A stretch of DNA of 63,696 nucleotides from assembly GCA_964524375.1 (NCBI GenBank), contig CAZGES010000001.1, positions 1 through 63,696 of the forward strand. The letters run 5' to 3'. The first letter of the stretch is position 1, and each line of letters opens with the position of its first letter. Below, one piece after another: positions 24,365-39,158 of the stretch. The notes beneath the pieces are model-generated. The model had not been told where the DNA came from, did no database searches, and worked only from the letters and a program-made list of their open reading frames with translations. The DNA is from an uncultured archaeon (lineage in GTDB: Archaea > Iainarchaeota > Iainarchaeia > Iainarchaeales > VGJJ01). The translations under genes and the position numbers were made by a program.

Positions 24365-24826
24365 CTACTGGCACTGTCCAACGACCGGCTGGATTCCATT
24401 GAATTTGAGTCCAGTCAAGTTGGCTGTGTTGTACGTGTATCCTAATGCTTTGCTGAATGTTTGTCCTGTGGCAACACCGCACACAATGGATGAATTTATC
24501 ACATTTGCAGTGGATCCTGCGCCGACGTTGACATCGGTGATGTCAATCGCAGAGCCGCCCCAATTAATGTCGGTTACTCGAATCGTTCCCGCGGTCAAGT
24601 TTTTGACAACGAGCGTTCCGGTAGAGGGTGTGACTTGCCATTCAATGACTGCAACAGGATTTGTTCCCGTCCAGTATGTTCGACTCGTGCTTTCGGAAAC
24701 TCCCGCACCTAATGAGGGGATTCCGCCCAACACGCCGACGACGACCAGCGCGATGACAATCACGATGGCTAAAATAATCAAATATTCCGTGGTCCCTTGA
24801 CCGCGATTTTTCTTCGTATGCATCAT
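24365..24826 (-). CDS. type IV pilin, Flp-like class III signal peptide (candidate major pilin)
   Basis: MMHTKKNRG|QGTTEYLIILAIVIVIALVVVGVL fits G/XXXXEY. Small (153 aa), Thr/Gly/Asn-rich, two Cys near the C-terminus. Own promoter, SD-like GGAGTGAGGAG and terminator. Confidence 0.8.
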   Translation of the reverse strand: MMHTKKNRGQGTTEYLIILAIVIVIALVVVGVLGGIPSLGAGVSESTSRTYWTGTNPVAVIEWQVTPSTGTLVVKNLTAGTIRVTDINWGGSAIDITDVNVGAGSTANVINSSIVCGVATGQTFSKALGYTYNTANLTGLKFNGIQPVVGQCQ

Positions 24827-24882
24827 ATTTTTCTCCTCACTCCCACGAAGGGGTTGTTAGATAGCAGAGCAAATGCTACGAT

Positions 24883-24901
24883 GAATATAAATCTACGTCA
24901 A
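24883..24901 (-). promoter_or_regulatory. pilin promoter: TTGACGTA motif abutting TATA box ATTTATATTC
   Basis: Minus strand reads TTGACGTAG-ATTTATATTC about 60 nt upstream of the pilin ATG. The motif overlaps the stop of the upstream platform gene. Confidence 0.5.
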
Positions 24902-25932
24902 CCCGTTGCGAGGAGACTGCCCAAAACTTGCCGGGCGAGACCAAATGCAATCATGGAAACTATAAACATAATCGGGGTGTAGCGCAATCCCAGAAACGGT
25001 TTCCCTTCCCCAATAACCCCCATGAAAATTCCCGCGAGGATAGCATTTCCTAAAAGCAAAATGTACGCGACGCTTTCCAAGAAAACAGGAGTAATGGAAA
25101 GTTTTCCCCCGAGGAAACCCACCGTGCTGGACGAAGAGCCGGCGGTGAGGAAAGAACTCTGACCCTGTATGCGTGTGATGAGGGTGACAAATTCCACCGA
25201 CACGGCCATGAGTAAGGGGGTGGCCACGACCATGACGAATGCGACAAAAATCACGTAGGTTTTCACACTGCTTTCTAATTCTTTTTTCAAATCTTGCGTG
25301 CGGCGCAAATCCGCGGAGGAGCTTTCCAAAATCTGCGCAATTCTTCCTCCGCTGCGAACCGCTTGCAAAAAGAAACGCACGGTTTCGCTTAAACTTTTTG
25401 ATTTAATTCGATTGGAAATGCCGCTCAGCACGTTTCCAAAGGATTCGGTTCCTAATGCACGCGTGGTTACGGCGCGAATTTCGTCTGAAAGCGCGCCAAA
25501 TTCCGGGCGCGTGGAACTTTTGAATGCGGAAAAACTAGTCATTCCCGCGCGGATGTTTCCCGCGACGAGAAGCAAAAAGTCCGGCAAAACTTCTTCCACT
25601 TTCTTGCGGCGGTTCTCGATGCGGTAATACAGGATGAGGACTTGGAGAATGAGGCCGGTGATGAACCCCACGCTTGTACCTAAAATTCCGGCTGTTTCGC
25701 GCGTGAAAGAAATTCCCGTGCCGAGGGGAGTTACCCACGCGTTGAGCGATTCGGACGTGAAATAAAAAAACACTGCCCCCGCAATTGCGGCGAGAATGGA
25801 AAGGATGAGTGTTTTGGAGAGCCATGTCGCTCCATCGTCTAATGAGCCGGATTCGCGCAAGTATGCGTTGGCATTCTCCCTCATCCGTACGGGGAGAGCG
25901 CGTGAGAGGCGATAGAAAAGGGGATTAGGCAT
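24898..25932 (-). CDS. type IV filament platform protein, TadC-like (single T2SSF-type domain)
   Basis: The track ORF 24898-26247 overlaps the upstream gene. The ATG at 25932 (MPNPLFYRL) is 2 nt after the upstream stop. Polytopic with a helical cytoplasmic domain (FGALSDEIRAVTTRALGTESFGNVLSGISNRIKS). Confidence 0.75.
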   Translation of the reverse strand: MPNPLFYRLSRALPVRMRENANAYLRESGSLDDGATWLSKTLILSILAAIAGAVFFYFTSESLNAWVTPLGTGISFTRETAGILGTSVGFITGLILQVLILYYRIENRRKKVEEVLPDFLLLVAGNIRAGMTSFSAFKSSTRPEFGALSDEIRAVTTRALGTESFGNVLSGISNRIKSKSLSETVRFFLQAVRSGGRIAQILESSSADLRRTQDLKKELESSVKTYVIFVAFVMVVATPLLMAVSVEFVTLITRIQGQSSFLTAGSSSSTVGFLGGKLSITPVFLESVAYILLLGNAILAGIFMGVIGEGKPFLGLRYTPIMFIVSMIAFGLARQVLGSLLATG

Positions 25933-25934
25933 AC

Positions 25935-26816
25935 TTAGTACCCCTTCGGCGTGCGCGAGCCGATGAAACCAATGAGGACAATTTGAACCGCAAACGCCGC
26001 TCCAATGGTGAGGAGAATCGTATCCTGCGAAATGGACGTGCCCCCGATGGAGGAGAGAATGATCATGAACGTAATTCCAATGGTTGGGAGGGCAGCGGCC
26101 ATGAGCAAATACATGAGAATCCACATGTTTAATTCTGCCGCGTAATTCTTGATGGCGCGCGACTGAAACTCGGTGAGGGTTTCCATAATCGCAGTAAGTG
26201 CCACGCTGATGGGTGCGCCCGTGCGAATCGTAGTTACAAGCTGCCAAATGGTTTTGCGCAAAAACTCGGATTGCGTGCGCAACGCCAACCGTTCAAGTGC
26301 CGCTCCTTCGTTTACTCCCGCGTTAATTTCCTGAATTACTTTTTCAAATTCTTCACTAATGACACCGTAATTGCTTTGCGCGATATTGGACATGGCATCA
26401 AACAAACTCACGCCGGAATTGACTTGGACTTGCATGCTTCGCAGCGCGAACATTAAACCTTGGTCGATTCCCGTGGCATTTTGTTGCGCGAGGATGCGCG
26501 GGTAGTAAATGTGAAGGAGAAACGCACTCAACCCTAGTCCTAACCCGGTAACAAAACCAAAACGCAGGCCTTGAATGATGTCACCGCTCGTGACAAAGGA
26601 GAGTGCGCCGATGAGGAGGAAGGAGAGGATGGAATACAGAAACGCCGAGAGAAGGGCCCCCGCCACATAGGATGGAGCGTCGGTGGAAATGTGGGCGAGT
26701 TTGAGAGTGTTATTCAACGTGGGGAAAAAGCGCGAAACATGGGTGGCAGCCCCCGTGAAACGTGAGGGGAGGTTGTTGATTTGGTCCAGGGTCAGGAGCA
26801 TGAATCGCACGCGCAT
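25935..26816 (-). CDS. type IV filament platform protein, TadB-like (single T2SSF-type domain)
   Basis: Polytopic. Cytoplasmic helical domain QVQVNSGVSLFDAMSNIAQSNYGVISEEFEKVIQEINAGVNEGAALERLA resembles T2SSF/TadB. Confidence 0.75.
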   Translation of the reverse strand: MRVRFMLLTLDQINNLPSRFTGAATHVSRFFPTLNNTLKLAHISTDAPSYVAGALLSAFLYSILSFLLIGALSFVTSGDIIQGLRFGFVTGLGLGLSAFLLHIYYPRILAQQNATGIDQGLMFALRSMQVQVNSGVSLFDAMSNIAQSNYGVISEEFEKVIQEINAGVNEGAALERLALRTQSEFLRKTIWQLVTTIRTGAPISVALTAIMETLTEFQSRAIKNYAAELNMWILMYLLMAAALPTIGITFMIILSSIGGTSISQDTILLTIGAAFAVQIVLIGFIGSRTPKGY

Positions 26817-26827
26817 GAAGAATCATC

Positions 26828-28648
26828 TCACAATGAGAAAGGGTCCTTGTCCTTGAATGCCGCGTCGTAAATCGTGGCGGGATTCGCATAAAATGCGTGC
26901 ATGATTTTTCCGACTTGCTCCATGGAGGAGCAATCGTGTTTGAGCATCCAGTCCAAAATAGTTATTCGGTTCAACACTTCTTCTTTGATTTCGCGCTCGG
27001 TCATTCCGGTGTGCATGTTTAATTTTTGAATGAGGCGAATGGGTTCGTTCATTTTTTCGAACGTGTCCCCGCGCGCGGACCAGCGGAAAATGTTTGAAAC
27101 ATTCGTCTGTTCATTGGTGGTGCCGGATTCAACTTCGGCAATTTCATACGTTCGACGCGCGTTTCCTCTTCTATCGCGATACTGAACAAGAATCAAATCA
27201 ATCGCCTCTACTTCCAACGCAGGAATGGAAATGGGCGGTTCAACTAAACGGCGCAATACTTGGTGTGCAGAGTCGGCGTGAATCGTCGCATACACGGAAT
27301 GTCCGGTGTGCATCGCTTCAAACAGCGCTTCCGCTTCTTGTCGCGTGCGCATTTCTCCAACGATCAAACGGTCGGGTCGCATTCGCAGGGAAGACAAGAG
27401 CAAATCTAACATTGTCACGCCCCCCGCGCCTTCAGGATTAGGATTTCTCGTTGTGAGCGGGACCCAGTTCCATTGCATGTAATCCGGTAAACTAATTTCA
27501 CGCACGTCTTCAATCGTAATGACACGCTGATGGGAGGGGATGAATGTGCATAACGCATTCAATGCACTCGTCTTTCCCGATGCAGTAGAACCGGCAACGA
27601 GCATGGATAATTCATACTGCATCGCCAACCACAACCACGCGCCCATTTCCGAATTCATCGTGTGCATCTTCCCAATGAAGTCCACCACCGACCAGGGTTT
27701 TCGTGCGAAGCGACGAATGGTTAACGTGTTTCCAAAAGATGAAATAGGAAACAATGTGGCGTTGACACGGTCTCCTGAAAGAAGGTGTGCGTCGAGAATA
27801 GGATGAAGGTTCGTAATTTCACGACCATTCTTTCGAGCAATCTGCGCGGACAAATTTTGAATGTGATCCTCGTTGGGCATAGCCAAATTGGTTTGCAGCC
27901 ATCCATAATTGCGATGGTAAATGGTGACCGCGGTTTTAGACGAATTAATGGCAATTTCTTCCAAATTATTATCGGCCATGAGCAATTCTAATTCACCCAA
28001 ACCATACAGGCGGTGGAGCATTTGTCCGGTTAGCGAGTCCATAATCTCAGGAGAGAGTCCGCGGAAGACTTGCACGAGTTGTTTCTTCGTCGCCTCTGCA
28101 AATTGGAGTTTCAAACCCTTGGCTTGCTCCACATCACTCAAGTCAATGGCTTCAATGGAAATGCTTGATGCAATTTTGTCGCGCATCTCATCCAATAGTA
28201 TTTCGGTGTAGGGTCCAAATGTTTGAACGTACAACGAGTAAAACGGATGACCATCATCGGCGAGCATAATTATTTTCACATCCGCCACCACATTGTCAGC
28301 GGAGAACGTGTACTGCTCCATGACTTCACCATTGGGCGGAGTGAGAAGTTTGTCGCTCAACTTTTGCAGCAATGCGACTTTGGGTCCTTGCAGCAAGGAC
28401 GCGGGATAGGAAAGTTTGACAATGCCTCTATTTTCCAAGAGCTTTAACACTTGCTCCATGTCCTGCGACTTCCACCCCGTGTATTTGGCGAGCTCATCCA
28501 GCCCCATTTCGGTTTTGGTTCCCAACACGCGCATGGCGTCATCAATCATCAACTGCACGCCCGTCGAGATGGAAAAGGGGCGGGAACGCGGGTCCACCAG
28601 CGGAGCGGGCTTGTCTCCGGAAAGGGAAACGGGAAGAATCTCGGGCAT
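26828..28648 (-). CDS. type IV filament assembly ATPase (TadA/FlaI/GspE superfamily)
   Basis: Walker A AGSTASGKTS, Asp box ITIEDVREI, Walker B RPDRLIVGEMR, His box HTGHSVYATIHA. ATG at 28648 with a TATA box 25 nt upstream. The track start at 28801 lies inside a tRNA. Confidence 0.85.
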   Translation of the reverse strand: MPEILPVSLSGDKPAPLVDPRSRPFSISTGVQLMIDDAMRVLGTKTEMGLDELAKYTGWKSQDMEQVLKLLENRGIVKLSYPASLLQGPKVALLQKLSDKLLTPPNGEVMEQYTFSADNVVADVKIIMLADDGHPFYSLYVQTFGPYTEILLDEMRDKIASSISIEAIDLSDVEQAKGLKLQFAEATKKQLVQVFRGLSPEIMDSLTGQMLHRLYGLGELELLMADNNLEEIAINSSKTAVTIYHRNYGWLQTNLAMPNEDHIQNLSAQIARKNGREITNLHPILDAHLLSGDRVNATLFPISSFGNTLTIRRFARKPWSVVDFIGKMHTMNSEMGAWLWLAMQYELSMLVAGSTASGKTSALNALCTFIPSHQRVITIEDVREISLPDYMQWNWVPLTTRNPNPEGAGGVTMLDLLLSSLRMRPDRLIVGEMRTRQEAEALFEAMHTGHSVYATIHADSAHQVLRRLVEPPISIPALEVEAIDLILVQYRDRRGNARRTYEIAEVESGTTNEQTNVSNIFRWSARGDTFEKMNEPIRLIQKLNMHTGMTEREIKEEVLNRITILDWMLKHDCSSMEQVGKIMHAFYANPATIYDAAFKDKDPFSL

Positions 28649-28669
28649 GCTCGAAACAGCGAAAGGGGC

Positions 28670-28677: not shown

Positions 28678-28749
28678 CGTATTCCCTGCCAATTCTACCA
28701 GGGGCAATAACCGGGGTTAAAAACCAATTTGAAGAGGATTTTTGTATAC

Positions 28750-28832
28750 GCGGAGTTGGCAGAGCGGTCAAATGCGCTGGTCTTGAAAACCAGAGCCTCA
28801 CGGCTACGGGAGTTCAAATCTCTCACTCCGCG
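28750..28832 (+). tRNA. tRNA-Ser (anticodon UGA)
   Basis: Acceptor GCGGAGT/ACTCCGC, anticodon arm CTGGT-CTTGAAA-ACCAG, long variable arm, T loop TTCAAAT, discriminator G. TTAAAAA box 30 nt upstream. Confidence 0.93.
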
Positions 28833-28901
28833 CTCGCTTCCGATCGAGCAGTCCGGTATAGAGGGATGACAAAAGTCATCCCTCGGCTGGACGTTTTTTT
28901 T
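28833..28901 (+). terminator. tRNA 3' flank module with hairpin GAGGGATGAC-AAAA-GTCATCCCTC, GGCTG and T8 run
   Basis: GTCCGGTATAGAGGGATGA.. closely matches the tRNA-Leu flank GTTCGGTATGGAGGGATGA... The oligo-T at 28894-28901 fits an archaeal terminator. Confidence 0.6.
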
Positions 28902-28929: not shown

Positions 28930-31488
28930 TTATTGCGGAGGCGTGGCAGTTGTTTCAGGGGTTGCTGTGCCCGTGCTTCCAATTCCACCACCGATGTCAA
29001 CGGGAATGGGTGCATCGTAGTAGATTCCGCCCAAACCCGTGTACGCGCGAATGGCGTTGAGGAAGGATTGAATCTCCGAGACTTCCATTCCGGCTTCTAA
29101 ACGAATGGTTTTCGTCGTTGTTCCATCCGTGATGGTGATGGTTTCAATGCTGCCATCCGCACAGCCCGGGCAGCCGAACGTCTCGTCCAATTTTTGGAAC
29201 GCGGGCCAATCTAAATTCTCCACGACATCATCATACTGCGAGTACGCGGGATTTTCATAGATGTTCGTGTATCCGGGGTCTCCTCCCGTGAAATTGGTTT
29301 GCTTAATTTTTGTTTTGGTCAATTCTACTTCTTGAAAACCGCACGCATCAGCGCAAAAGACGCCTTCCACGCGCGCAGTTATTTTGAGATTTTTGGGAAT
29401 GGTAACGAAATCAATGGTTTTGATTTCGTGCAAATCACTTAACGCATTGGCTTTGATTCGTTTATCGGAGATGGTGTATAACACATCTTCAATGAACAGG
29501 GAACGCTTGACTTGGTATTGCCAGTCGTAATAGTAGCCGGACTTCAAGTCAATTTCCTCATCTACATGTGTAATGCGTCCGCGCTCTTTGAAGCCGTTTT
29601 CTAGTGTAACATTATACACGAAAGCGCCTTGAAAAACGGGTTCACCGTACGCGGGCCAATCTCTCCAGTCGCCAATTCCATTTTGAATATTATTTTTTTG
29701 CTCGTCTGAAATCTCGTGCAAATAAATGGGGAGCACGAGGAGATTTTTCTCCGCATCAAACAAGAACGCGTGATGGTCTTGCAGCGCGAATGAATCTGTT
29801 CCTCTATCGCCGATGATGAGCGAGTGCATCTGCTGGGGGTTCTCCACATCTGTAACATCAAAGATGGCGAGCTTCATTCCCAAATAGTAGGCGAAGTCAC
29901 CCGACTTGGATGTTTCGGTGTCTTTTCCGATTCCCACGATGTGAGTGGCATCAATGGGGTGCAAATAATCCGAGTAGCCGGGGATTTTGAGTTTCCCTAA
30001 CACTTTAGGATTTGTCGCATCGCTCAAATCCAACACAAACAAGGGGTCGATTTGTCTAAATGTGACTAAATATGCGCGGTCGCCCATGAAGCGAGCGGAA
30101 TAAATTCTCTCGCCGGGAGCGAGGTCTTCCAACGACCCAACAAGTTCCATGTCCTCGTTAAACGTGTACACGTTGTTCATCGACTTCGTGTTTTCATTCG
30201 TGAGGGGGTTCCATTGCTCATCTATTGTTGTGGCGATTCGAAAAGTGTTTTTGTGTTCATCCATTGAAAATTGGTTGAGGACGCGGCCTAATGCCGTTCC
30301 CTTTCCTTCATACTCGACGCGGCCATTGTTCAACGAAAATTTGTGAATAATGGTTTTAGTTGTATTATCCTGCTCGTTCGGCATGGCAGTGTCGGTCGTG
30401 GCAGGAGGAGAAGCGTCATCGACTTCACGCACACCCGCTAAAGGCATGATGGGTCCGCCGTAATAATTCCATTGCGTGTGGGCGAGATACAAATTGTTTT
30501 CAGACGCATACGTGGTTTCAGCGCTTCCCACGATCGTTTCTTTGTTGAACGAAAGCGTGTCTACGTTTAACGAACCAATGGTCACAAAACTTTGCGCGTA
30601 AATGGGGCGCAAATATCCAATATCTTGCGGCGCGGCGAGGGGCTTCTCCACACCATCTTCAAAATACGGGGGAATGATGGACGCGTCATCGTCTTTGGTT
30701 TCGGCGTTCAACATGTAATATTCCGGATATGCTTGCATGACGAAGTATACTTGGTTGCCAATCATGCGCGAGGAAACGTAGTTTCCCGTGAAGGCGAGTT
30801 CTTTTTCGAGCGTGGGATTTTCCTTATTTGAAATATCATACACGTTCACGATTGATTTTGAATAATTCCAGTACGGAGGATAAATGTAACTTCCTCCCCA
30901 GCCGGGTGCGGCCATCTTCGTATCGTACGCGGGGTATTCGCGCTGCTCATACGAGTTTCCAAACAAAATGAGTTTGTTTCCGTTCACAAACATTTGAGAA
31001 GGAGTAATGTTATCCAAGTTGAGTGTCTTCACGACGCGCGCCTCATCGGCGGGATAGGCGAGAGTGATGACAAGTTTGTTTTTGTAAAACGCATAAATGT
31101 ATTTTCCATCCGTTTTCACGATGTCGGCTTCATCCACGCCTTCGACTTGAACATTCGTGTTCGAGTAGGCGGGGCCGGACGGGTTCACGCTAGCGCCTCC
31201 TGTTCCACTATCCGATTTGGATTCTCCATTCACAGCGGCAGTGGGGGCCATTACATTGTCGCGCACCGCATACTGATTGTTTCCGCTTTGCTGGGCTTGC
31301 GTGAATGCGGCGACAATTTCGGCTTCGCTTGAAAAGTGAGGAATGATTTTGGGTCCGAGCGTGTCATTGGGAGTGAAAATAGGATTGGTGTTTGCAGGCA
31401 AATTCGTTTGCGCGAGCGCAAAAATAAATGCTATTCCTAGAATAGCGAGGCCGATTCCGGCGATGGGTATGTTTCCTTTCGAACTCAT
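28930..31488 (-). CDS. secreted beta-propeller domain protein (COG4880/Beta_propel-like) with Cys-containing C-terminal domain
   Basis: N-terminal anchor IPIAGIGLAILGIAFIFALA. VQVEGVDEADIVKTDGKYIY and RFMGDRAYLVTFRQIDPLFVLDLSD..IPGYSDYLHP match that family as I recall it. Confidence 0.8.
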   Translation of the reverse strand: MSSKGNIPIAGIGLAILGIAFIFALAQTNLPANTNPIFTPNDTLGPKIIPHFSSEAEIVAAFTQAQQSGNNQYAVRDNVMAPTAAVNGESKSDSGTGGASVNPSGPAYSNTNVQVEGVDEADIVKTDGKYIYAFYKNKLVITLAYPADEARVVKTLNLDNITPSQMFVNGNKLILFGNSYEQREYPAYDTKMAAPGWGGSYIYPPYWNYSKSIVNVYDISNKENPTLEKELAFTGNYVSSRMIGNQVYFVMQAYPEYYMLNAETKDDDASIIPPYFEDGVEKPLAAPQDIGYLRPIYAQSFVTIGSLNVDTLSFNKETIVGSAETTYASENNLYLAHTQWNYYGGPIMPLAGVREVDDASPPATTDTAMPNEQDNTTKTIIHKFSLNNGRVEYEGKGTALGRVLNQFSMDEHKNTFRIATTIDEQWNPLTNENTKSMNNVYTFNEDMELVGSLEDLAPGERIYSARFMGDRAYLVTFRQIDPLFVLDLSDATNPKVLGKLKIPGYSDYLHPIDATHIVGIGKDTETSKSGDFAYYLGMKLAIFDVTDVENPQQMHSLIIGDRGTDSFALQDHHAFLFDAEKNLLVLPIYLHEISDEQKNNIQNGIGDWRDWPAYGEPVFQGAFVYNVTLENGFKERGRITHVDEEIDLKSGYYYDWQYQVKRSLFIEDVLYTISDKRIKANALSDLHEIKTIDFVTIPKNLKITARVEGVFCADACGFQEVELTKTKIKQTNFTGGDPGYTNIYENPAYSQYDDVVENLDWPAFQKLDETFGCPGCADGSIETITITDGTTTKTIRLEAGMEVSEIQSFLNAIRAYTGLGGIYYDAPIPVDIGGGIGSTGTATPETTATPPQ

Positions 31489-31627: not shown

Positions 31628-31891
31628 TTATTCTTCGGCGGGCATCGAACGAATGAGGTGCTTTGAGCGGGAGTACGCCCAGAGAATTCCTACCAGGCAG
31701 GCGGTGGCAATTAAGTAATACACGAGCGAATCCACGAGATTGCGGTTTAGTTGCGAAACAATTCCCTCGATGAGTGTGAATGTGAATACTGCAAGTAGTA
31801 TGAGGGTGCTCGTGAGGAGGAGAATAATCTTCACAGAATCCATGAATTCGGACATAGCATGAAAGCCAGCGGAATGGAGTATAAAAAGCAT
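31628..31891 (-). CDS. small two-TM membrane protein
   Basis: Two hydrophobic helices. Lies at the distal end of the pilin-like gene string. Start uncertain. Confidence 0.4.
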   Translation of the reverse strand: MLFILHSAGFHAMSEFMDSVKIILLLTSTLILLAVFTFTLIEGIVSQLNRNLVDSLVYYLIATACLVGILWAYSRSKHLIRSMPAEE

Positions 31892-32855: not shown

Positions 32856-33283
32856 GTGGCCACCTCCACGACATACATGTTGGCATCGGGGGGTGACACG
32901 ACTATGAAACTGTGGCGTACGCGTTCAACTTGGGGAGCGAAGGTGGTGCAACCGCTTTTCGTCACAATAAAAGCAGGGAGATTTTGGTCAGGAGATGGAA
33001 AAACGGCGACACTCCCGCAGATGGAAGTGGGCCACCCATTGATGTACGAGCGAACTTCTGTGGTGTTATTCAAAATGACCGCGCGCGAGAGAGCGGGGCT
33101 TTGTTCAAATGTGAGTGCAGCATTCTCTGCGAAGAGGCGCAGGATTAACTCTTGGCGGACATCGCTCCCTTTGCTCGTTGACGCGTCGAAAGCGAGGGAG
33201 ATGATGACGAATAGCACCGTGAGTGCGAGCAATGCGTCGATGGCGATGACAAATCCTCGGTTTGTTTTTTTGTTGAGCGTCAT
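32843..33283 (-). CDS. minor pilin-like protein (146 aa)
   Basis: ATG at 33283, 1 nt after the upstream stop. MTLNKKTNRG|FVIAIDALLALTVLFVIISLAF. Confidence 0.65.
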   Translation of the reverse strand: MTLNKKTNRGFVIAIDALLALTVLFVIISLAFDASTSKGSDVRQELILRLFAENAALTFEQSPALSRAVILNNTTEVRSYINGWPTSICGSVAVFPSPDQNLPAFIVTKSGCTTFAPQVERVRHSFIVVSPPDANMYVVEVATWSV

Positions 33284-33284
33284 G

Positions 33285-33812
33285 TTAGACACCGTAGACC
33301 TGCACCGTGGCAATGGCGGGGCGTGATTGATAGACAACGGGAAGCGTGACCACACTCACCGTGTTTTTGTTGATGGGCGCCGTGCCGGCGCGCGTGAGAA
33401 TCGTCTTGTTTTCGTCTGAAATGGTCACGTAAAAATTCAAGTCTTCCAAACCCATGCGCGAAACCAGTTGGGTGTAATTGGTCGCGTTCCAATCTAGAAA
33501 CGCTGCCCATTTAGCCGGGGAAATGGCTGTGCCATTGGGAGAAACACCCACGCTCAACACGTCGCTGCGGTTAGAATTCGTGTCCCAATACGTGGGGTTG
33601 CCGGGGCTTGTGAAAAGAATAGCGGCCGTGCGCGCGGTAGTAAGGCTCAGGGTATAGGCATTGTGCTCTTCCGCGGCTTGATTTTGCAATTGTTGGTTCA
33701 CTGCTGAAATGAGGGTGGCGGCGAAAAGGAAAATGACAATGGAGAGCAGCGCATCCGAGGAGTATAGTTGTCCTCTGCTTCGCGTGTGCGTTTGAGAATG
33801 TCTCTGTTTCAT
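33285..33812 (-). CDS. minor pilin-like protein (175 aa)
   Basis: THTRSRG|QLYSSDALLSIVIFLFAATLISAV. Start overlaps the upstream stop (ATGA). Confidence 0.65.
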   Translation of the reverse strand: MKQRHSQTHTRSRGQLYSSDALLSIVIFLFAATLISAVNQQLQNQAAEEHNAYTLSLTTARTAAILFTSPGNPTYWDTNSNRSDVLSVGVSPNGTAISPAKWAAFLDWNATNYTQLVSRMGLEDLNFYVTISDENKTILTRAGTAPINKNTVSVVTLPVVYQSRPAIATVQVYGV

Positions 33813-34231
33813 GGTGATACTTCCCGAATGTCGAGGCGGCCATTCACGTCGCGCTGAATGGTGAAAAAATTTCCATCGTGTAAATTTGAAAATGAAAACT
33901 CTGTAAAAGGAATTTTGACGGAAGAATAACTGCGCGCGCTGCGCGCTTCAATGAGGCCCGAGCCAAGAATAATGGTCTGTGTTTCTATTGCAGCGGGAAT
34001 GAAAAATTTTATTTTGCTTCCAATGGGAGCGCGGCTCATTTCCATGATGCTGCTGGCGACGATTTGGGCGGAGCGCTCGGTAGATTGCTGCGCTCGAATG
34101 GAATCCACCACAATTAATTGCTGCGCAAAAATGGAAAAAGAAACAGATAATAAAATTAGCAGCAAGGGTAAAATGACCATAATTTCTACGGTGGCTTGTC
34201 CGCGCGCGTGAGTGTGTGTCATGAGCCTCAT
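33809..34231 (-). CDS. TadE-like minor pilin (140 aa)
   Basis: HARG|QATVEIMVILPLLLILLSV resembles the TadE/TadF N-terminal motif (G-x-x-x-VE-h-h-h-h-h-P). Confidence 0.65.
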   Translation of the reverse strand: MRLMTHTHARGQATVEIMVILPLLLILLSVSFSIFAQQLIVVDSIRAQQSTERSAQIVASSIMEMSRAPIGSKIKFFIPAAIETQTIILGSGLIEARSARSYSSVKIPFTEFSFSNLHDGNFFTIQRDVNGRLDIREVSP

Positions 34232-34235: not shown

Positions 34236-36494
34236 CTACGTCTCGACTTGGTCGAATGTGATATTCATGTCGGTAAACCCCTGAATCATTTCCACGTACA
34301 AGCGCGAAGGGTTGGGGATGTTGACGAGCGCACCGTCAAAACGATAGCCGGTGGGAAAAACGACAGTGGAAAGGAGGTCGAGGCTCGTCAAGTATGCTGC
34401 GGCAGGATTGGCGGTGTAATTGGGTGCGCCGGCAGGCAGTCCAACCGTGTTTGAAGTGGGGTACCAGATGCGCACGTTGTTCAAGCGAATGGCACTAAAA
34501 CCTAGGGCAGCATACCACGAATTGTCGGCATTCGCGTCATCGATGACGTGCAAGTACACGTTTCGGTCTCCTGAACCTAATGTAAAATTATGCAGCGAGA
34601 ATTTGTTGATGTCTAATTCTCCATCGTTAGGAGACACGCGCGAGAAGGCAAACGGAATAATGTTCAAGTCATTCACTCCGTATCTGAATGAGTTGTTCGG
34701 CCGCGCGGATGGACTATTGGAGAGTCCACTGTTGTTATCCGCTTCATCAAAAAACATGATGGAAAAATAGTAAGTTTGTCCCACGTTCAAATCGGTAACA
34801 AGTTGATTTCCATCCGACCCCGCGGCGGGGAAAATAATTTGATTGAGGTCTAATCCAGTGGGGTCGCTGTATGCGTAAGGTATCGCGTTGGAGAATTGGG
34901 CGAGTGTGGTAATGGGGGTGGTGGCGTAGCGGATGTCCACCGCTGAAACGGTGCCGGATTGATTATCATCTCCGGGAAAGACCCACTCGAGGAAAGTGGA
35001 TTCGGGATATGGTCCTGATTCGGCGGTAAAACTAGTGGGTGACCCAGGGGGAGTCGTGTCGGTGGCGCAGCCCGCTCCAATTGAATCGCCCGTGTATGAT
35101 GAGCCGTCGGAAAATGTCACAACTGGTTGATAAATGGCATTATTTCCCGAAATGGGATTGGAGAAGGAGATGCTATTATTGTGAAGAATAGACTGCGCAG
35201 GAATGTTGGTGTCCGTGATATCCATCACGTTTCCATCGGCCGCATTTCCGGAGAAAACCTGTCCATTATTGAGTACGACGCTCGTAATAGTGGAATGGTT
35301 CACGTCGCAGTCCCACCAGTGGCGGATGGCAATCGTGGAAAGGGTAACGGGTTTGGAACTCGAGTTGTGCAAAAGTATTCCCGAGATGGATGCTTCCGTT
35401 CCAACGCCCACTTCTCCATCCCATTCCCATCTGAAATAGTTTGTCATCGTATCCACGTTGGCCGTGAGGGGAATGACTTGGCTGTTGGCACCGGTGAAGT
35501 CAGTTATGGAGAGTGACCCTGCATACGCTCCTGCCGTGGTGTTGGCGGGCACGGTGCTATTCACATCCACATACTGGCACGAGGACGCATCAAGTTGAGC
35601 GATGGTAGTCATGGGAGCAACCCACGACCCGGGGGGTTGTGCAGAGGGAGTAAATGAAATGGACTTGATGGGAGTCGAACCCGCGTTGCAGAGCTGCAGC
35701 GTCTGCGAATTAAAGTCCGCGCCGAGCGTGTGATAGGTGACAGAAGAAGGAATGACTGTTAGAAGTGTTTGAGACGGAGAAAAAACTTCCACGTTGATAG
35801 GAATGGAAAATGACTCCACATTCGAACCTATTGTGCTTTGCGCGTGGAGAAAACCCACGTAGTTTCCGAGCGAAGAAGATGTCGCGTTGAAATCCAACGT
35901 GAGTGTGTCGCGTTGAAATTTTGGAATAGATGAGGTGGATTTAGAAACGCTTGCATCAACGAGCGTGTGCGACCAGGAAAGATTGTAAACCATGTTGGCC
36001 GCTCTCGCACTCAAATTAGTAAAGGTAAGAGTGGTTGACTCGTTGGAGTCGCGCGACATGGGAATGTAAATGCTGCCGGTGTCGCTTACTACGGTAACCA
36101 AGCTCACGTTCACCCGGTCCGCGTATGAAACGAGACGGAGGCGCAGCAATCCTACTTCGGTGGGCACGGTTCCCTGCAAGCGGGTTAAACTATCGCGCGC
36201 AATATCCGTGTCGTAGACGCGGAGGATGATGCTGTTGTTCTCATACCGCGAATTGATGGCGTCAATTCCTTTGGGAAATGGCAAAATAATATCACGCGTC
36301 TTCCCGGGACCGGAAAGATAGACTTGGTTGATTTCCCGTACTAATTGTTCAAGCGAAGCGGACGCAATTTCAATGGATTGCTGTCTCTCCACTTCCGCGA
36401 CGTGGGTGGTGGTGAAACTCACGAGCGCGGCTAAAATGGTGAGTGAAATGACCAATACCATGAGCAGTTCAACGCTGGATTGCCCTCGACGCAT
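34236..36494 (-). CDS. giant pilin-like surface protein, paralog 2 (752 aa)
   Basis: MRRG|QSSVELLMVLVISLTILAALVSF. Collinear with paralog 1 (LQLCNAGSTPIKSISFTPS, RHWWDCD, PGDDNQSGT, RIWYPT). The ATG at 36494 lies 25 nt after its own TATA box. Confidence 0.7.
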   Translation of the reverse strand: MRRGQSSVELLMVLVISLTILAALVSFTTTHVAEVERQQSIEIASASLEQLVREINQVYLSGPGKTRDIILPFPKGIDAINSRYENNSIILRVYDTDIARDSLTRLQGTVPTEVGLLRLRLVSYADRVNVSLVTVVSDTGSIYIPMSRDSNESTTLTFTNLSARAANMVYNLSWSHTLVDASVSKSTSSIPKFQRDTLTLDFNATSSSLGNYVGFLHAQSTIGSNVESFSIPINVEVFSPSQTLLTVIPSSVTYHTLGADFNSQTLQLCNAGSTPIKSISFTPSAQPPGSWVAPMTTIAQLDASSCQYVDVNSTVPANTTAGAYAGSLSITDFTGANSQVIPLTANVDTMTNYFRWEWDGEVGVGTEASISGILLHNSSSKPVTLSTIAIRHWWDCDVNHSTITSVVLNNGQVFSGNAADGNVMDITDTNIPAQSILHNNSISFSNPISGNNAIYQPVVTFSDGSSYTGDSIGAGCATDTTPPGSPTSFTAESGPYPESTFLEWVFPGDDNQSGTVSAVDIRYATTPITTLAQFSNAIPYAYSDPTGLDLNQIIFPAAGSDGNQLVTDLNVGQTYYFSIMFFDEADNNSGLSNSPSARPNNSFRYGVNDLNIIPFAFSRVSPNDGELDINKFSLHNFTLGSGDRNVYLHVIDDANADNSWYAALGFSAIRLNNVRIWYPTSNTVGLPAGAPNYTANPAAAYLTSLDLLSTVVFPTGYRFDGALVNIPNPSRLYVEMIQGFTDMNITFDQVET

Positions 36495-36514
36495 GCACGG
36501 AAAAGGGGCCATTT

Positions 36515-36522
36515 CTTTATAT
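36515..36522 (-). promoter_or_regulatory. TATA box (ATATAAAG) for giant pilin paralog 2
   Basis: Centred ~25 nt upstream of the ATG at 36494. Confidence 0.5.
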
Positions 36523-36578
36523 GCGCGCGCGCTCCTTCGGTGGAAAAAAGCAATAACTGTGCGGCGAAAAAATGGCTG

Positions 36579-38864
36579 CTAGAGGGGAGTAAAGCCGGGT
36601 TCCGTTCCTTCGGTGTTATCAATCACCAGATTGAAATCGGAAATTCCCGCGAGCACGTCAATGTAAACGTGGTTGGGGCGCAATACTGAAAGCAGCGACC
36701 CCCCATAAGGGTACGTGGATCCAAATAGATTGGTGTCGCGCAGGTTTAGGCCATTGGTAAAAGGGTAATTATAATTTTGGTCAAACTGCGCACTATTTGG
36801 TTGCCATGAAAGTCCCCCCGTCGGATACCAGATGCGCGCGCGCTTGAGAATGAAATTGTTGAGGTCCAAGAGTATCATCCATCCATTATCGGTGTTGGTA
36901 TCATTCACGATGCGGATGGCAATTTCGTCGTACGCGTTTCCAGGAGAAAATGAGAGTGCGTTCAAATCAAATTGGCTTAATGCCGCTTGTCCTTGAGTAA
37001 CAGCCCCTGAACCCGGAGAAAAATTGACCGCGTTAAAATCGCCCCGCGAATAGGAGAAGCGGTTCCACGCCCGATTCATGTCGGAGTTGGAAAGACTGGC
37101 ATAATTTCCATTTTCATCATACGCTTTCGCGGCGAAATAAAAATCCTTTCCGATGTTGATGTCAGTGAAGACTGCGGAGAACGCTCCCATATAATCCGGG
37201 GGGATTCCTGCTCCTCCGACTGGAATAATGGTTCGCGCGGCGTTGAATTCAGCATTTGTGGTGATGTCGGTGGGGCTGTATTTGTATAATATTCCTAACG
37301 GCGTTCCCGTGTAATTATCATCCCCCGGGAGAGTGAAGCGCAGTTCAATGGATTGCGCGTCCGGACCTTGGAGGGCGACTAAATCCGTGATAGGGGCTGG
37401 AGGAATAATGTCGTCCGGACACGTGTAACTGCCGAACGTGGAACTAGTGTATTGTGTACCATCGGAAAAATCAACGACCGCGTAAAAGGGCTCATTTTCA
37501 TCATTGATTGTGTTGCTGAACTCGAGCAGGTTGTCCGAGTAGCTTGTGAGGACGGGAATGTTGAAGTCTGACACGTCCACCGTATTTCCATCGGCTGCAT
37601 ATCCGGAGAAGCGAGAGTTATTGTCCACGCGGAATTGGGTCCAATAGGAATGAGCGGAGTCGCAGTTCCACCAATCGTGGAGCGTGACATGGGTGATGCG
37701 CACGGGTTTTCGTCCCGTGTTCGTGAGTGCAAAATCAAGAATAGTATTCACACTGCGCACCGCCGGGGACCAGTCCCACGTGAATGCGCTGCTCATTCCG
37801 AGAACAGAAATCGTGGTGGGGATGGAAATAGAATTCGCTCCCGTGTAATCGGAAACGGCGAGTGAACCATAATGCGTTCCCAGCGTGTCGGTGGGCACAC
37901 TCACATTCACATCAACGGCTTGGCATGATTGCGCGGCCAGCGAATCAATAGTTGCAAACGGACTAATCCACGTGCCCGGCGTGCCCGAGGAAGGAGTAAT
38001 TGAAATCGTTTTAATTTCAGTCGCGCCCACGTTGCACAATTGAATCGTTGTTGAATTAGTGTCTATTCCAAAGGTGCTTAACGAAATGCTTGTTGGAAAA
38101 GCAACGAGCTGCGCAGTGCCTCCGACGTGAACATTGGCTTGAAGGGGCAGGACGAGTGTCTGCACCGAACTGGGATAGGTGGCAATGATGGTAGCATCAC
38201 CCGTGTACGTGCCCACTGCACTGCTATTGGAATTAAAATTCACATCAAACGTGAACGTGCCACCCCCATACAAGTCGCCCGAACTCGGACTCACAGCTAT
38301 GTTCACGTCGGAGTGCGACCAGGAAGTGGAAATGGAAATAGCCGCCTGCGCCGAGGCAGCATCATCCAAGAGGAGATTGGTGAGTGTGATGCGCGTGCTG
38401 GACGTGGAACTGCGCGAGAGTGTTGATAGAACGGTGGAAGGACTCATGGTGAAAGAAACTTCTCCAATGAGAACAAAACCGTCAAAGGAGCGGATGCGAA
38501 TGTTCTGCAAACCCGAAGTGGTGGGAAGAGACCCTGTCAAAATGGGAATGGTCTCCCCAAAAACCTGCGTGTCAAAAACATTTAATGCCATTCCATGATT
38601 GGAGACAAGCGTGCCTGTGGATGAAACACCCTCCGGCCACGCGAGTTGAATATAGCGCGACGCGCCCGGGCCTTGAGCATACACTTCATTGGACGCATTG
38701 ACAATCGTCTGAATGGCCAATTCAGCCGTCTTAATGGCGCGCTGTTTCTGAACATTATTCACTTGCTCCGCGGTAAAACTAATGAGCACGGTCAAGATGA
38801 CTAACGCCACGGCGAGAATGGTCATCAATTCAATCGTCGTCTGCGCCCGCAGGGTTCTGCCCAC
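36579..38864 (-). CDS. giant pilin-like surface protein, paralog 1 (about 761 aa)
   Basis: (M)GRTLRA|QTTIELMTILAVALVILTVLISF. I prefer the GTG at 38864, 22 nt after ATCAAAATT. The track ATG at 38987 adds 41 codons across sequence that is a non-coding tRNA promoter in the other copy. Confidence 0.65.
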   Translation of the reverse strand: MGRTLRAQTTIELMTILAVALVILTVLISFTAEQVNNVQKQRAIKTAELAIQTIVNASNEVYAQGPGASRYIQLAWPEGVSSTGTLVSNHGMALNVFDTQVFGETIPILTGSLPTTSGLQNIRIRSFDGFVLIGEVSFTMSPSTVLSTLSRSSTSSTRITLTNLLLDDAASAQAAISISTSWSHSDVNIAVSPSSGDLYGGGTFTFDVNFNSNSSAVGTYTGDATIIATYPSSVQTLVLPLQANVHVGGTAQLVAFPTSISLSTFGIDTNSTTIQLCNVGATEIKTISITPSSGTPGTWISPFATIDSLAAQSCQAVDVNVSVPTDTLGTHYGSLAVSDYTGANSISIPTTISVLGMSSAFTWDWSPAVRSVNTILDFALTNTGRKPVRITHVTLHDWWNCDSAHSYWTQFRVDNNSRFSGYAADGNTVDVSDFNIPVLTSYSDNLLEFSNTINDENEPFYAVVDFSDGTQYTSSTFGSYTCPDDIIPPAPITDLVALQGPDAQSIELRFTLPGDDNYTGTPLGILYKYSPTDITTNAEFNAARTIIPVGGAGIPPDYMGAFSAVFTDINIGKDFYFAAKAYDENGNYASLSNSDMNRAWNRFSYSRGDFNAVNFSPGSGAVTQGQAALSQFDLNALSFSPGNAYDEIAIRIVNDTNTDNGWMILLDLNNFILKRARIWYPTGGLSWQPNSAQFDQNYNYPFTNGLNLRDTNLFGSTYPYGGSLLSVLRPNHVYIDVLAGISDFNLVIDNTEGTEPGFTPL

Positions 38865-38918
38865 CCGATTCCGTACGGGCGCTCCGGAATTTTGATGAAC
38901 CTTTTGGAAAAAAGTTCC
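38844..38918 (-). promoter_or_regulatory. tRNA-type promoter/leader module, copy B, heading the giant pilin gene
   Basis: GGAACTTTTTTCCAAAAGGTTC-ATCAAAAT-TCCGGAGCGCCCGTACGGAATCGGGTGGGCAGAACCCTGCGGGCG aligns with 2846-2906. Confidence 0.55.
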
Positions 38919-39158
38919 GCGCGTCGGCGTTAGGGTCGCCTGCTGCGGCAGAAACTCAGACGAAAACGGTACACTCTTACTTGACATGGCAAAGGCACCA
39001 ATTCTGGGCTTTTAACGGTTGCCCCGCAGCCTTTTTACCCGCAAAAACCCTGGGGAAAAACCCTTTGGGTGACTGCTAGTGCAGTGTTTTATAAAACGCT
39101 TGAAGCAAAAATGGTCTAGAAGACTAGTTTAACTGTTGGGAAAGGGTTCCAGACCTTC

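Follow-up and report, generated by a model that had tools for sequence, protein, structure and literature searches.

A type IV filament locus with split platform genes in a small-genome archaeon of the Iainarchaeota (DPANN)

Among archaeal type IV filaments, the Epd-like branch (Makarova clade 1, 'System 1') is the sister of bacterial Tad, and two platform genes with a single T2SSF domain each are its defining trait (Denise et al. 2019). Glutamine at +1 and glutamate at +5 of the cleavage site are the published signature of its EppA-dependent pilins (PMC4371748), and the clade-1 model combines these signals with two large class III proteins, about five minor pilins and the two platform genes (PMC4858521; PMC4371748). 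The major pilins of Epd and Tad systems are short (literature including Denise et al. 2019). Published split platforms also include those of archaeal clades 4A and 4B, among others (PMC4858521; bioRxiv 10.64898/2026.04.22.720090). Among DPANN archaea, Micrarchaeon Mia14 has two type IV pilus systems, one of them 'euryarchaeal-like', with a single FlaK-like peptidase, and a 'Methanococci-group' system has been reported in it (PMC5498576). According to a 2026 preprint, DPANN archaea are one of the groups that have 'System 1'. The locus described here lies in a stretch of 63,696 nucleotides (the window) from an uncultured archaeon and matches the clade-1 model in its signals, large proteins, minor pilins and platform genes. 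Its ATPase and its main pilin differ from the Epd/Tad pattern.

The locus and its surroundings

Twelve ORFs of the sizes first listed (G1 to G12) were present on the minus strand at positions 24365-38987. They make up a real locus for a type IV filament in an Iainarchaeota/DPANN archaeon with a small genome, as the initial annotation had proposed; the ORFs and the ATPase, platform and class III pilin families were all confirmed. TATA-like boxes and a hairpin with a T-run 3' of the last gene can be read in the sequence, in agreement with the proposal that the giant genes and the pilin gene have promoters of their own and that the pilin gene has a terminator. The order of all 12 genes was the same in three related Iainarchaeota contigs (L005, L006 and L007), and a fourth (L001) differed by one moved gene.

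The prepilin peptidase, which the annotation had reported as missing from the window, was indeed not found: no A24 match was obtained among the real ORFs that had been flagged as multi-spanning (at least three hydrophobic segments). Two features had been overlooked. One is a tRNA-Ser(UGA) gene (28750-28833, plus strand; ARAGORN and Rfam). It is antisense to the locus, sits immediately upstream of the ATPase gene and divides the locus into two blocks, and L001, L005, L006 and L007 have it at the same place and in the same direction. The other, at the end of the window (60637-63527), is a second secretion ATPase together with a platform whose two domains are fused.

The assembly ATPase and the split platform

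G9 (26828-28648, minus strand) encodes the secretion (assembly) ATPase (PF00437, 2.3e-33). The mechanical 657-aa ORF runs through the tRNA-Ser(UGA); translation truly begins with the ATG at 28648, and the protein has 606 aa, of which about 190 form an N-terminal extension. Over 5,800 homologues were found, the best of them named Diapherotrites/Iainarchaeum. Among NCBIfam models, G9 scored 268 bits with FlaI, 169 with the TadA type and 144 with BasE; against PDB sequences, the scores were 247 bits for afGspE, 181 for FlaI and 140 for CpaF.

The DPANN ATPases formed a clade with 100% bootstrap in trees that were neighbour-joining only, with 304-337 columns and PDB fragments transcribed from an alignment. 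This clade grouped with FlaI, afGspE and the haloarchaeal pilus ATPase at 83-91% bootstrap, with or without an outgroup, while CpaF/TadA and the Tad-like archaeal 'GHDGS' group were placed apart; since bona fide EpdL, AapE and UpsE sequences were not among the taxa, the topology may be affected by long branches or by clades that were not sampled. G9 also shares with FlaI, afGspE and the haloarchaeal ATPase a one-residue deletion at the GHS motif ('GHS-VY'), unlike the 'GHDGS' form of CpaF, VirB11, Marine Group II (MG-II) archaea and another DPANN system, L053. The ancestral LRMRPDR motif is kept in G9 and lost in the other three, indicating that G9 stands outside the FlaI/afGspE/haloarchaeal group and not inside it. 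The earlier assignment of the locus to the Tad/Epd branch was not supported by the ATPase phylogeny.

The platform is encoded by two separate genes, as annotated, G10 (25935-26816, minus strand; 293 aa) and G11 (24898-25932, minus strand; 344 aa), each with one T2SSF domain (PF00482; E-values of the two genes, 5e-15 and 1.2e-11). G10 is the counterpart of the N-terminal half in platforms of the fused PilC/FlaJ type and aligns to residues 59-230 of the 484 of UpsF; its family HMM scored 24.5 bits with the N half of a haloarchaeal fused platform versus 8.4 bits with the C half. G11 corresponds to the C-terminal half (UpsF 285-465), its family HMM giving 42.2 bits with the C half versus 26.6 with the N half and matching TadB better than TadC. 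A simple fission in place would produce the order seen here (ATPase, N-half, C-half), whereas in Tad the C-half-like gene comes first.

This order was found wherever enough sequence followed the ATPase gene in the 40 DPANN loci taken from a species-genome scan, 31 of which had both platform genes. Members of the Iain-, Micr-, Parv-, Woese- and Pacearchaeota share the core module of ATPase and two platform halves, which has a pilin of about 150 aa and an operon of minor pilins close by. In many of the 40 loci the pilin carries the motif [KR][GA]↓Q..xE[YF] (the arrow marks the cleavage site) and the minor-pilin operon includes one giant member. We interpret the split platform as a fission distinct from that of Tad/Epd, or at the least as no diagnostic feature of that branch; its use as a Tad/Epd marker rested on an incomplete premise, given the split platforms published outside Epd.

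Pilins, giant proteins and accessories

Class III N-termini were found in seven proteins of the locus (G1 to G6 and G12) and are kept in homologues from other contigs. A heuristic scan of N-termini selected these seven, its other matches being segments of membrane proteins or unconvincing on inspection. Their occurrence in seven proteins of one locus is far beyond chance. Four of them (G1, G2, G3 and G12) combine Q at +1 with E at +5, which marks EppA substrates in Methanococcus. The pattern of a glycine before the cleavage site and glutamate at +5, earlier attributed to four proteins, holds for the glutamate in all four, but G1 has alanine at -1.

G12 (24365-24826, minus strand; 153 aa; RG↓QGTTEY) is the predicted major pilin. 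It carries the class III signal domain PF04021 (Class_IIIsignal) at just over the gathering score, and the domain was present in 64 of the 64 family members scanned. The family comprises at least 152 proteins, those with a named source coming from Diapherotrites/Iainarchaeum, Micrarchaeota or an unclassified archaeon. The gene has a TATA-like box of its own and GGAGTGAGGAG, which resembles a Shine-Dalgarno sequence, and is followed by a terminator-like hairpin (CTTTGAGGGATT...AATCCCTCAAGAG) and a long T-run, read in the sequence at 24275-24335 (minus strand). The AF2 model (pLDDT 86.8) shows an N-terminal helix and a beta-sandwich head, and its best fold matches were the Aap pilin of Sulfolobus (8Q30) and the crenarchaeal pili 8FK7 and 6NAV (Pyrobaculum, S. 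islandicus). G12 had been called Flp-like, which the fold does not support; its full globular head contrasts with the short major pilins of Epd and Tad.

The two giant proteins, of 750-800 aa, were shown to be a pilin helix fused to a string of Ig-like domains. G2 (34236-36512, minus strand) has an ORF of 758 aa, but Met7 (36494) is the probable start, because its homologues, of which 11 were found, begin M(N/R)RGQ and a TATA box precedes this codon by about 26 nt. Its RG↓QSSVE signal leads into a 58-residue N-terminal helix followed by at least five Ig/FN3-like beta-sandwich domains. The AF2 model (pLDDT 74) has a helix at residues 3-60 with all-beta domains after it, and Foldseek matched multi-Ig/FN3 proteins. 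G1 (36579-38987, minus strand; 802 aa) is a full-length paralogue of G2 (34% identity). Its residues 47-53 read RA↓QTTIE and are followed by beta-sandwich domains in tandem, and it has a weak match to HYDIN/VesB Ig-like Pfam families. Its N-terminal motif is kept in L001 and L006, and a TATA-like box of its own lies upstream. G1 is a predicted tip adhesin. This agrees with the description of two giant pilin-like genes, each with a promoter.

Four minor pilins follow. G3 (33809-34231, minus strand; 140 aa; RG↓QATVE), labelled TadE-like before, scored 17.3 bits with Pfam TadE against a cut-off of 22.9, over its N-terminal 28 residues only, and TadE matched just 2 of the 16 DPANN members of its family, in which Q12 and E16 are the sole invariant columns; the label was not supported. 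G4 (33285-33812, minus strand; 175 aa; RG↓QLYSSD) has Q at +1 and Asp at +6, a motif type (Q..S.D) that also occurs in DPANN loci. G5 (32843-33283, minus strand; 146 aa from the ATG, with a GTG ORF reaching 33355; RG↓FVIAID) has a giant homologue of 830-930 aa in Woesearchaeota (the 'xFFSxDAL' member). The largest, G6 (31920-32855, minus strand; 311 aa; RG↓FVLSFS), has no acidic residue downstream of the cleavage site and is a candidate capping subunit; its counterparts in DPANN loci have about 270-320 aa and KG↓(I/M)F.. at this site.

G7 (31628-31891, minus strand; 87 aa as an ORF) is a small protein with two membrane-spanning segments that probably starts at Met13, giving 75 aa, judging from its homologues and the TATA spacing. 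Its position is kept in L005-L007 and its sequence in the closest relative only. G8 (28930-31488, minus strand; 852 aa) is a membrane-anchored protein whose annotation as a beta-propeller was confirmed by PF09826 (Beta_propel, 5.5e-168); no homologue of solved structure was found by sequence. It has a TATA-like box of its own. In L005-L007 its counterpart is likewise part of the locus, and in L001 it is found upstream. It was not found within 10 kb of the 40 other DPANN loci and is a putative lineage-specific accessory, possibly a surface or adhesion factor.

Affiliation and proposed role of the filament

The locus probably encodes an archaeal type IV pilus for adhesion, one of a family conserved across DPANN that belongs to the ordinary archaeal side and not to Tad/Epd. 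On the basis of the ATPase phylogeny and the Aap-like pilin fold, the system sits with the afGspE/halo-pilus/archaellum side.

Membership of the Epd-like branch, with the platform split by the same ancestral fission as in Tad, is unlikely. Such a placement would accommodate the two single-T2SSF genes, the signals of the same type as those of EpdA-E (RAQI, KGQV...; PMC4371748), the PF04021 domain of the pilin, and the two large class III proteins with several minor pilins (PMC4858521), as well as the listing of DPANN as carriers of 'System 1' and the 'Methanococci-group' system reported in Mia14. However, the ATPase groups with neither CpaF/TadA nor the archaeal 'GHDGS' group, the pilin has a full head, the platform genes are in the N-then-C order, TadE is sub-threshold in G3, and neither a TadZ/FleN-type ATPase nor EppA was found within the locus. 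L053 fits the Epd-like features better, with its Tad-like ATPase motif, split platform and five short Q/E/Y pilins, and its 8 genes match the 8-gene 'Methanococci-group' locus of Mia14 (PMC5498576). Of the initial reading as a Tad/Epd filament, the split platform, the Q/E signals and the distinction from an archaellum stand, while the ATPase, the pilin fold and TadE speak against it.

A short pseudopilus of the bindosome or competence type, used for DNA uptake, host exchange, or display or secretion of surface proteins, is an improbable alternative. Four minor pilins with one large member lacking the glutamate recall the priming complexes of T2SS and competence systems, DPANN rely on their hosts for macromolecules, the authors of the Mia14 study speculated on DNA exchange through type IV pili, and the 2026 preprint proposed functionalised filaments carrying binding proteins. 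Against this, the pilin, of an abundant 150-aa type with its own promoter and terminator, looks like a filament-forming major subunit with an Aap-like fold, the giant proteins resemble Ig-array adhesins and not substrate-binding proteins, and family searches found no DNA-processing genes within the locus.

A motility (archaellum) locus is effectively refuted: although FlaI was the best NCBIfam model for the ATPase and the ATPase clade is sister to the group containing FlaI, the 268 bits are much lower than the cut-off of 550, the ATPase does not have the LRQRPxY motif of FlaI, the platform is split, unlike FlaJ, and no archaellin, FlaF, FlaG, FlaH or FlaX matched in the locus or the scanned neighbours.

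For the adhesion pilus that we favour, a prepilin peptidase encoded elsewhere would cut after [GA] in a motif of K or R, [GA], and Q or F. The roles that we infer for G1 to G8 are as follows. G3 to G6 would form a priming or tip complex, of which G6, having no acidic residue, may be the cap, and which would carry G1 and/or G2 as tip adhesins. G12 would be polymerised beneath this complex by the ATPase and the two platform halves, and G7 and G8 may be lineage-specific accessories at the cell surface. Because the giant proteins combine a pilin helix with strings of Ig-like domains, an adhesive role is plausible, as is the attachment apparatus first suggested, and the filament may serve this archaeon for attachment to a host cell or surface.

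Gene content and conservation of the locus

The locus at 24365-38987 on the minus strand is a type IV pilus locus of 12 genes (G1 to G12), and all twelve open reading frames of the initial annotation were present at the sizes given. The assembly ATPase, G9, matched the secretion ATPase family PF00437 (2.3e-33), and the two adjacent genes directly downstream, the platform genes G10 and G11, each encoded a single T2SSF domain (PF00482; 5e-15 and 1.2e-11). The proposed assignment to type IV filaments is supported by this pairing of ATPase and T2SSF platform together with seven class III pilin-like proteins and archaeal type IV pilin folds. The 852-aa G8 matched the beta-propeller family PF09826 (5.5e-168), and the 153-aa predicted major pilin, G12, scored above the threshold of the Pfam Class_IIIsignal model (PF04021).

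The ATPase gene is present as annotated, but its 657-aa mechanical open reading frame crosses an oppositely oriented tRNA-Ser(UGA) gene at 28750-28833 on the plus strand, and the real product is a 606-aa protein that starts at ATG 28648, about 25 nt downstream of a TATA-like box. This tRNA gene lies antisense, with the beta-propeller gene on one side and the ATPase gene on the other. Four related Iainarchaeota contigs (L001, L005, L006, and L007) have it at the same position and in the same orientation, including the contig in which the propeller gene has moved, indicating that the locus is made of two blocks, one of G1 to G8 and the other of the ATPase, platform, and pilin genes. A second tRNA gene, tRNA-Ser(GGA), is located at 39219-39304, just upstream of G1. 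The starts of G2 and of G7, a small protein with two transmembrane segments, are most likely Met7 and Met13, respectively. The promoter-like boxes noted earlier, and the hairpin and T-run behind the last gene, were seen in the sequence. As read from the DNA, the spread of promoter-like elements would agree with G1, G2 to G7, G8, the ATPase-platform block, and G12 each being controlled independently, and the strong terminator-like element after G12 would fit a structural gene predicted to be highly expressed. The pilin gene was found in no RNA-seq run.

The arrangement of the locus is more than chance, because the complete gene order is found again in L005, L006, and L007, whose ATPases share 86, 70, and 68% identity with G9, and in L001, where the propeller gene alone is displaced. 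The shared order is two giant genes, genes for proteins of about 135, 170, 143, 293, and 70 aa, the propeller gene, the tRNA gene, the ATPase gene, two platform genes, and a pilin gene of about 150 aa. The pilus family is widespread in DPANN archaea and has already been noted, but not dissected, in the literature. Members of its ATPase clade were found in Iainarchaeota, Micrarchaeota, Parvarchaeota, Woesearchaeota, Pacearchaeota, and Nanobdellati in a scan of one genome per species with the motifs SLRMRPDR and I[ST]IEDVRE, a scan biased towards DPANN, Marine Group II (MG-II), and Tad-like sequences. An N-half-like and then a C-half-like platform gene followed the ATPase gene wherever the sequence sufficed, both being visible in 31 of the 40 DPANN loci. 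Many of these 40 loci encoded a pilin of about 150 aa starting with [KR][GA]/Q..xE[YF] (cleavage sites are marked by a slash), and many had an operon of small class III proteins, one member of which was often giant. Among the DPANN loci compared, the beta-propeller gene was confined to the closest relatives of the window.

The presence of an archaeal RNase P RNA (58430-58684, minus strand; Rfam, 109 bits) indicates that the window is archaeal. Mechanical open reading frames extend over this RNA on both strands (58480-58689, 58492-58731, and 58521-59006), and at least the parts under the RNA are probably noncoding. The best source-named ATPase homologues were from Candidatus Diapherotrites/Iainarchaeum, and near-identical DNA was found in wastewater, bioreactor, and activated-sludge metagenomes. 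Directly beside the pilus locus is a complete clustered MEP/DOXP isoprenoid pathway (13908-22761), which may merit its own look. It comprises an IspE-like GHMP kinase (13908-14810) and IspH/LytB (14810-15823) on the minus strand, as well as Dxr (15953-17182), IspD (17485-18210), a NUDIX protein (18207-18869), IspF (18866-19363), Dxs (19543-21393), and IspG/GcpE (21493-22761); GcpE and a Dxs fragment occupy the same position in L005. The MEP pathway has been called almost absent in archaea (PMC11052028). Among DPANN archaea of oxygen-deficient zones, it was reported in Woesearchaeota and Nanoarchaeota MAGs, and mevalonate-pathway genes were reported in Iainarchaeota (PMC10936187). A 135-aa open reading frame at 49038-49445 on the minus strand, flanked by a leucyl-tRNA-synthetase-like gene and an aspartate/ornithine carbamoyltransferase gene, matched Pfam PhageMetallopep (2.9e-19).

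Pilin-like proteins

Class III N-termini, conserved across homologues, were found in seven proteins: the giant pilin-like proteins G1 (RA/QTTIE) and G2 (RG/QSSVE), the minor pilins G3 (RG/QATVE), G4 (RG/QLYSSD), G5 (RG/FVIAID), and G6 (RG/FVLSFS), and G12 (RG/QGTTEY). A heuristic scan of the window picked the same seven, the remaining picks being membrane-protein segments or unconvincing by eye. The signal with Q at +1 and E at +5 is complete in G1, G2, G3, and G12 and partial in G4. Gln +1 with Glu +5 is the signature of EppA-processed Epd pilins (RAQI, KGQV, KGQL, and KGQI) and is missing from the Aap, Ups, and Haloferax pilins (PMC4371748). No EppA was found in the window. The earlier observation that the window encodes no prepilin peptidase was borne out, as no A24 peptidase occurred among its real multi-spanning open reading frames. 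The open reading frame at 7217-7987, with six transmembrane segments, was considered as a hidden prepilin peptidase and rejected; it matched nothing in Pfam and showed no obvious Asp motifs of a catalytic kind.

The pilin classes named in the initial annotation did not hold. G12 had been called Flp-like, but this 153-aa protein has a confidently modeled beta-sandwich head. Its AlphaFold model (pLDDT 86.8) consists of an N-terminal helix followed by a beta-sandwich, and the best PDB matches of the model were the Aap pilin of Sulfolobus acidocaldarius (8Q30, the best structural match) and the pili of P. calidifontis and S. islandicus; the crenarchaeal pilus structures 8FK7, 6NAV, and 6W8U were all matched. 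These matches indicate that G12 is a normal archaeal pilin with a head and not of the headless Flp type. PF04021 was detected in G12 and all 63 homologues scanned (64/64), and the window scan yielded no short class III open reading frame of the headless Flp/EpdE type. G3 had been called TadE-like. The Pfam TadE model (PF07811) gave 17.3 bits, below the cut-off of 22.9, covered the N-terminal helix only, and matched 2 of 16 family members.

G1 and G2 are paralogues over their full length, with 34% identity. The model of G2 (pLDDT 74, pTM 0.33) starts with an N-terminal helix of 58 residues, which is followed by a string of Ig/FN3-like beta-sandwiches; its confidence is only moderate, given the small number of homologues (at least 11) among the matches listed. 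Foldseek searches with this model returned only multi-Ig proteins, indicating tandem Ig/FN3-like domains and nothing finer. The slot taken by the giant protein in minor-pilin operons differs by lineage (L018, L025, L027 to L029, L032, L033, L037, and L041). In Iainarchaeota it comes first and is of the Q/E type, in Woesearchaeota it comes third, measures 830 to 930 aa, and is of the 'xFFSxDAL' type, and in the locus L003 the giant has a LamG domain and a length of at least 1631 aa. This variation in operon slot and type suggests that adhesin modules have been fused repeatedly to pilin N-termini.

Assembly ATPase and platform halves

Against solved structures, G9 scored 247 bits with afGspE, 181 with FlaI, 140 with CpaF, and 72 with VirB11. 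Trees of the conserved core were built from 20 sequences and then from 48, adding DPANN, MG-II, and diverse bacterial Tad ATPases. They were neighbor-joining trees only (Kimura or Scoredist distances; 300 to 500 bootstraps), with PDB sequences transcribed from a printed alignment, and they lacked EpdL, AapE, and UpsE and thus any clade-4 or authentic Epd ATPase. A DPANN clade including G9 had 100% bootstrap support. The split between this clade with FlaI, afGspE, and the haloarchaeal pilus ATPase and all other sequences had 83 to 91% support, with or without a VirB11/TrbB outgroup. The bacterial Tad ATPases formed a separate clade. In these trees without authentic EpdL, a split uniting Tad with the MG-II group reached 0 to 18% and one uniting the DPANN clade with the MG-II group 1 to 7%.

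Rare sequence changes gave the same picture. The DPANN clade, FlaI, afGspE, and the haloarchaeal ATPase have in common a one-residue-shorter 'GHS-VY' form, and the 'GHDGS' form occurs in CpaF/TadA, VirB11/TrbB, MG-II, the locus L054, and the second Micrarchaeota system, L053. An insert of about 10 residues after RLE is found in Tad and VirB11 and is missing from all archaeal sequences. The DPANN clade retains the ancestral LRMRPDR, which has changed to LRQRPxY in FlaI, afGspE, and the haloarchaeal ATPase. Together with the trees, these changes indicate that the DPANN ATPase branches as sister to the euryarchaeal-pilus/archaellum group and is not a Tad-like enzyme. A Tad placement is not supported by the ATPase phylogeny that the initial annotation had called for, run here by neighbor joining; G9 did not group with CpaF/TadA, and the indels agree. 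The N-terminal extension of the ATPase (residues about 95 to 150; gene 26828-28648, minus strand) reads like a winged-helix domain (…LDELAKYTGWKSQDMEQVLKLLENRGIVKL…). Homologues are about 570 to 1010 aa long, the variation arising in this region, and some have precomputed Pfam MarR/PF23989 matches in this extension.

The platform is encoded in two halves. Family HMMs, built from six homologues of each gene, were compared with the fused haloarchaeal platform: that of G10 scored 24.5 bits with the N half and 8.4 bits with the C half, and that of G11 scored 42.2 bits with the C half and 26.6 bits with the N half. The NCBIfam UpsF alignments agree, G10 covering positions 59 to 230 and G11 positions 285 to 465. 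The order of ATPase, N half, and C half is that expected from in-place fission of the usual archaeal pair of ATPase and fused platform. In bacterial Tad loci, TadB, the first gene after the ATPase gene, tends to the C-half model, and TadC, the second, was closer to the N-half model in several loci, with low scores in both cases; this assignment is in agreement with Denise et al. (PMC6668835). The split platform reported in the initial annotation, with one T2SSF domain per gene, is therefore real, but as a mark of the Tad/Epd branch it is not exclusive, being shared by clades 4A and 4B and others.

Two other archaeal systems look like better Epd-like candidates than the locus studied here. L053 (3492-8740 on a Micrarchaeota contig) has eight genes, for an ATPase with the Tad-like 'GHxGS' feature, a split platform, and five short pilins of 49 to 132 aa with KG/QG.FEY. 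In MG-II (Poseidoniales; L057 to L070, about 8500-11130), two small platform genes, of about 190 and 243 aa, precede a Tad-like 'GHxGS' ATPase gene. The window itself contains a second secretion-ATPase system on the plus strand, overlooked in the initial annotation, with a DUF192 protein (60163-60576), an ATPase of 447 aa (60637-61980), and, at 61872-63527 (start probably Met36), a fused platform that has two T2SSF stretches. This ATPase forms a separate deep branch, and its best NCBIfam model was the TadA-family conjugal-transfer ATPase (167 bits). In L006, genes for a TrbC/VirB2-like pilin and for TrbL-like and TraC-like proteins adjoin its homologue, and these neighbors suggest an apparatus resembling those of conjugation or DNA transfer.

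Relation to known pili and proposed function

The Epd pilus of Methanococcus maripaludis (Makarova clade 1, 'System 1') likewise has two separate platform genes, [KR][GA]/Q cleavage with Glu +5, and several minor pilins and large adhesin-like class III proteins in the locus, and it has a role in attachment. For clade 1, Makarova et al. (PMC4858521) describe two TadC genes, at least five minor pilins, and two large adhesin-like proteins, together with the ATPase, EppA, and a FleN/MinD ATPase, and Sivabalasarma and Albers (bioRxiv 2026) list DPANN archaea as carrying System 1. However, the ATPase studied here falls on the FlaI/afGspE/haloarchaeal side and not on the Tad-like side in neighbor-joining trees without authentic EpdL, and the Epd major pilin is headless whereas G12 has a globular beta-sandwich head. 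No EppA, FleN/MinD, or DUF2341 was detected with the locus, and neither a FleN/MinD/TadZ-like nor a FlaH-like secondary ATPase domain was found in the 12 genes or their neighbors. The platform genes follow the ATPase gene here, whereas co-regulation with EpdL has been described for EpdJ and EpdK. The branch of Epd-like and Tad systems has been defined by ATPase, platform, and pilin trees, the split platform, and short major pilins (Denise et al., PMC6668835). The reading as a type IV pilus with a split platform and Epd-style signals stands, but the ATPase trees and indels and the headed pilin place the locus probably outside the Tad/Epd lineage.

The Aap pilus of S. acidocaldarius and related crenarchaeal pili (clade 4A) are adhesion-type archaeal pili with a core of ATPase and platform. 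According to the literature, loci of clades 4A and 4B may likewise contain two platform genes, along with a PilY-like adhesin; Sivabalasarma and Albers (bioRxiv 2026) report the two platform genes for subsystem 4B and for subsystem 4A, the latter with some DPANN members. Aap pilins differ in being cut at RA/LS by PibD, without the Q +1/E +5 signature, and giant pilin-fused Ig-array proteins are missing from Aap. Among DPANN, 'Ca. Mancarchaeum acidiphilum' Mia14 has two type IV pilus systems, one of them 'euryarchaeal-like' (9 genes), and a single unlinked FlaK-like peptidase (Golyshina et al. 2017, PMC5498576). It resembles the present case in its prepilin peptidase encoded elsewhere and in LamG-type giant proteins linked to the loci, as in L003; the Mia14 loci were listed and not dissected. 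From gene counts and tree position, not direct comparison, we infer that L053 is the counterpart of the 8-gene Mia14 system and the locus studied here that of the 9-gene system.

The bacterial Tad/Flp pilus (CpaF/TadA, TadB, TadC, Flp, and TadE/F/G) shares the split platform, the G/xxxxE(Y) motif, pseudopilins, and a large TadG-like protein with a pilin-type N terminus. In contrast, G9 has neither the 'GHDGS' form of Tad/VirB11 nor the insert of about 10 residues, the C-half-like TadB comes first in Tad, and Flp is headless and about 50 to 60 aa long. No matches to TadF, TadZ, TadV, the secretin RcpA, CpaB, or Flp were found in the locus with Pfam/NCBIfam. The tip complexes of bacterial T4aP minor pilins with PilY1 and of T2SS GspH-I-J-K also consist of four small pilin-like proteins, one of them larger and lacking the acidic residue, and a large adhesin and a beta-propeller protein are likewise encoded alongside. 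Sequence homology to these systems was not detected, and the adhesins here carry the pilin helix themselves. The PF09826 propeller of G8 is distinct from the PilY1 family and found only in the closest relatives; a PilY1-like role would be an analogy. We found neither a literature link between PF09826 propellers and type IV pili nor a solved homologue of G8. An archaellum was rejected, as FlaI gave 268 bits against a cut-off of 550, the platform is split, and there were no archaellin or FlaF/G/H matches.

The assembly order, tip location, and adhesive function may be inferred from the components as follows. A prepilin peptidase encoded elsewhere would cleave off the short basic leader. G3 to G6 would then form a priming or tip complex, with G6, which is large and lacks the acidic residue, as the candidate cap. 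This complex may display G1 and/or G2, whose pilin helix would enter the filament while the Ig-like arrays point outward. The ATPase and both platform halves would polymerize G12, and G8, a membrane-anchored propeller, and G7 may be lineage-specific surface accessories. The pilus is probably adhesive.

Taken singly, the locus represents an expected machine in an expected organism. Most worth following are the giant pilin-fused adhesins and the mixture in which Epd-type signals and a split platform are combined with a euryarchaeal-type ATPase and an Aap-like pilin. Behind this mixture there may be a second fission of the platform or a reshuffling of modules. Split platforms have been published as a mark of the Epd/Tad lineage, and this idea is affected, as an ordinary archaeal ATPase and pilin accompany the split here; fission would have occurred more than once, or modules would have recombined. 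More tentatively, and with less than even confidence, these loci may represent one ancient DPANN pilus lineage, with an ATPase sister to the euryarchaeal pilus/archaellum ATPases, a platform fission of its own, EppA-style signals without EppA, and interchangeable giant Ig-array adhesins on a four-subunit tip.

Almost all cultivated DPANN archaea are attached to hosts by means that are poorly known, and in their bacterial counterparts, the Saccharibacteria, host binding is driven by type IV pili. The conserved DPANN parts list, with its major pilin, its minor set of four, its pair of giant pilin-fused adhesins, and its split platform, could steer cryo-ET, antibody work, and proteomics on enrichments. 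If there is a single DPANN pilus lineage, it would be the host-attachment organ of these episymbionts, and the adhesin genes would be determinants of host range.
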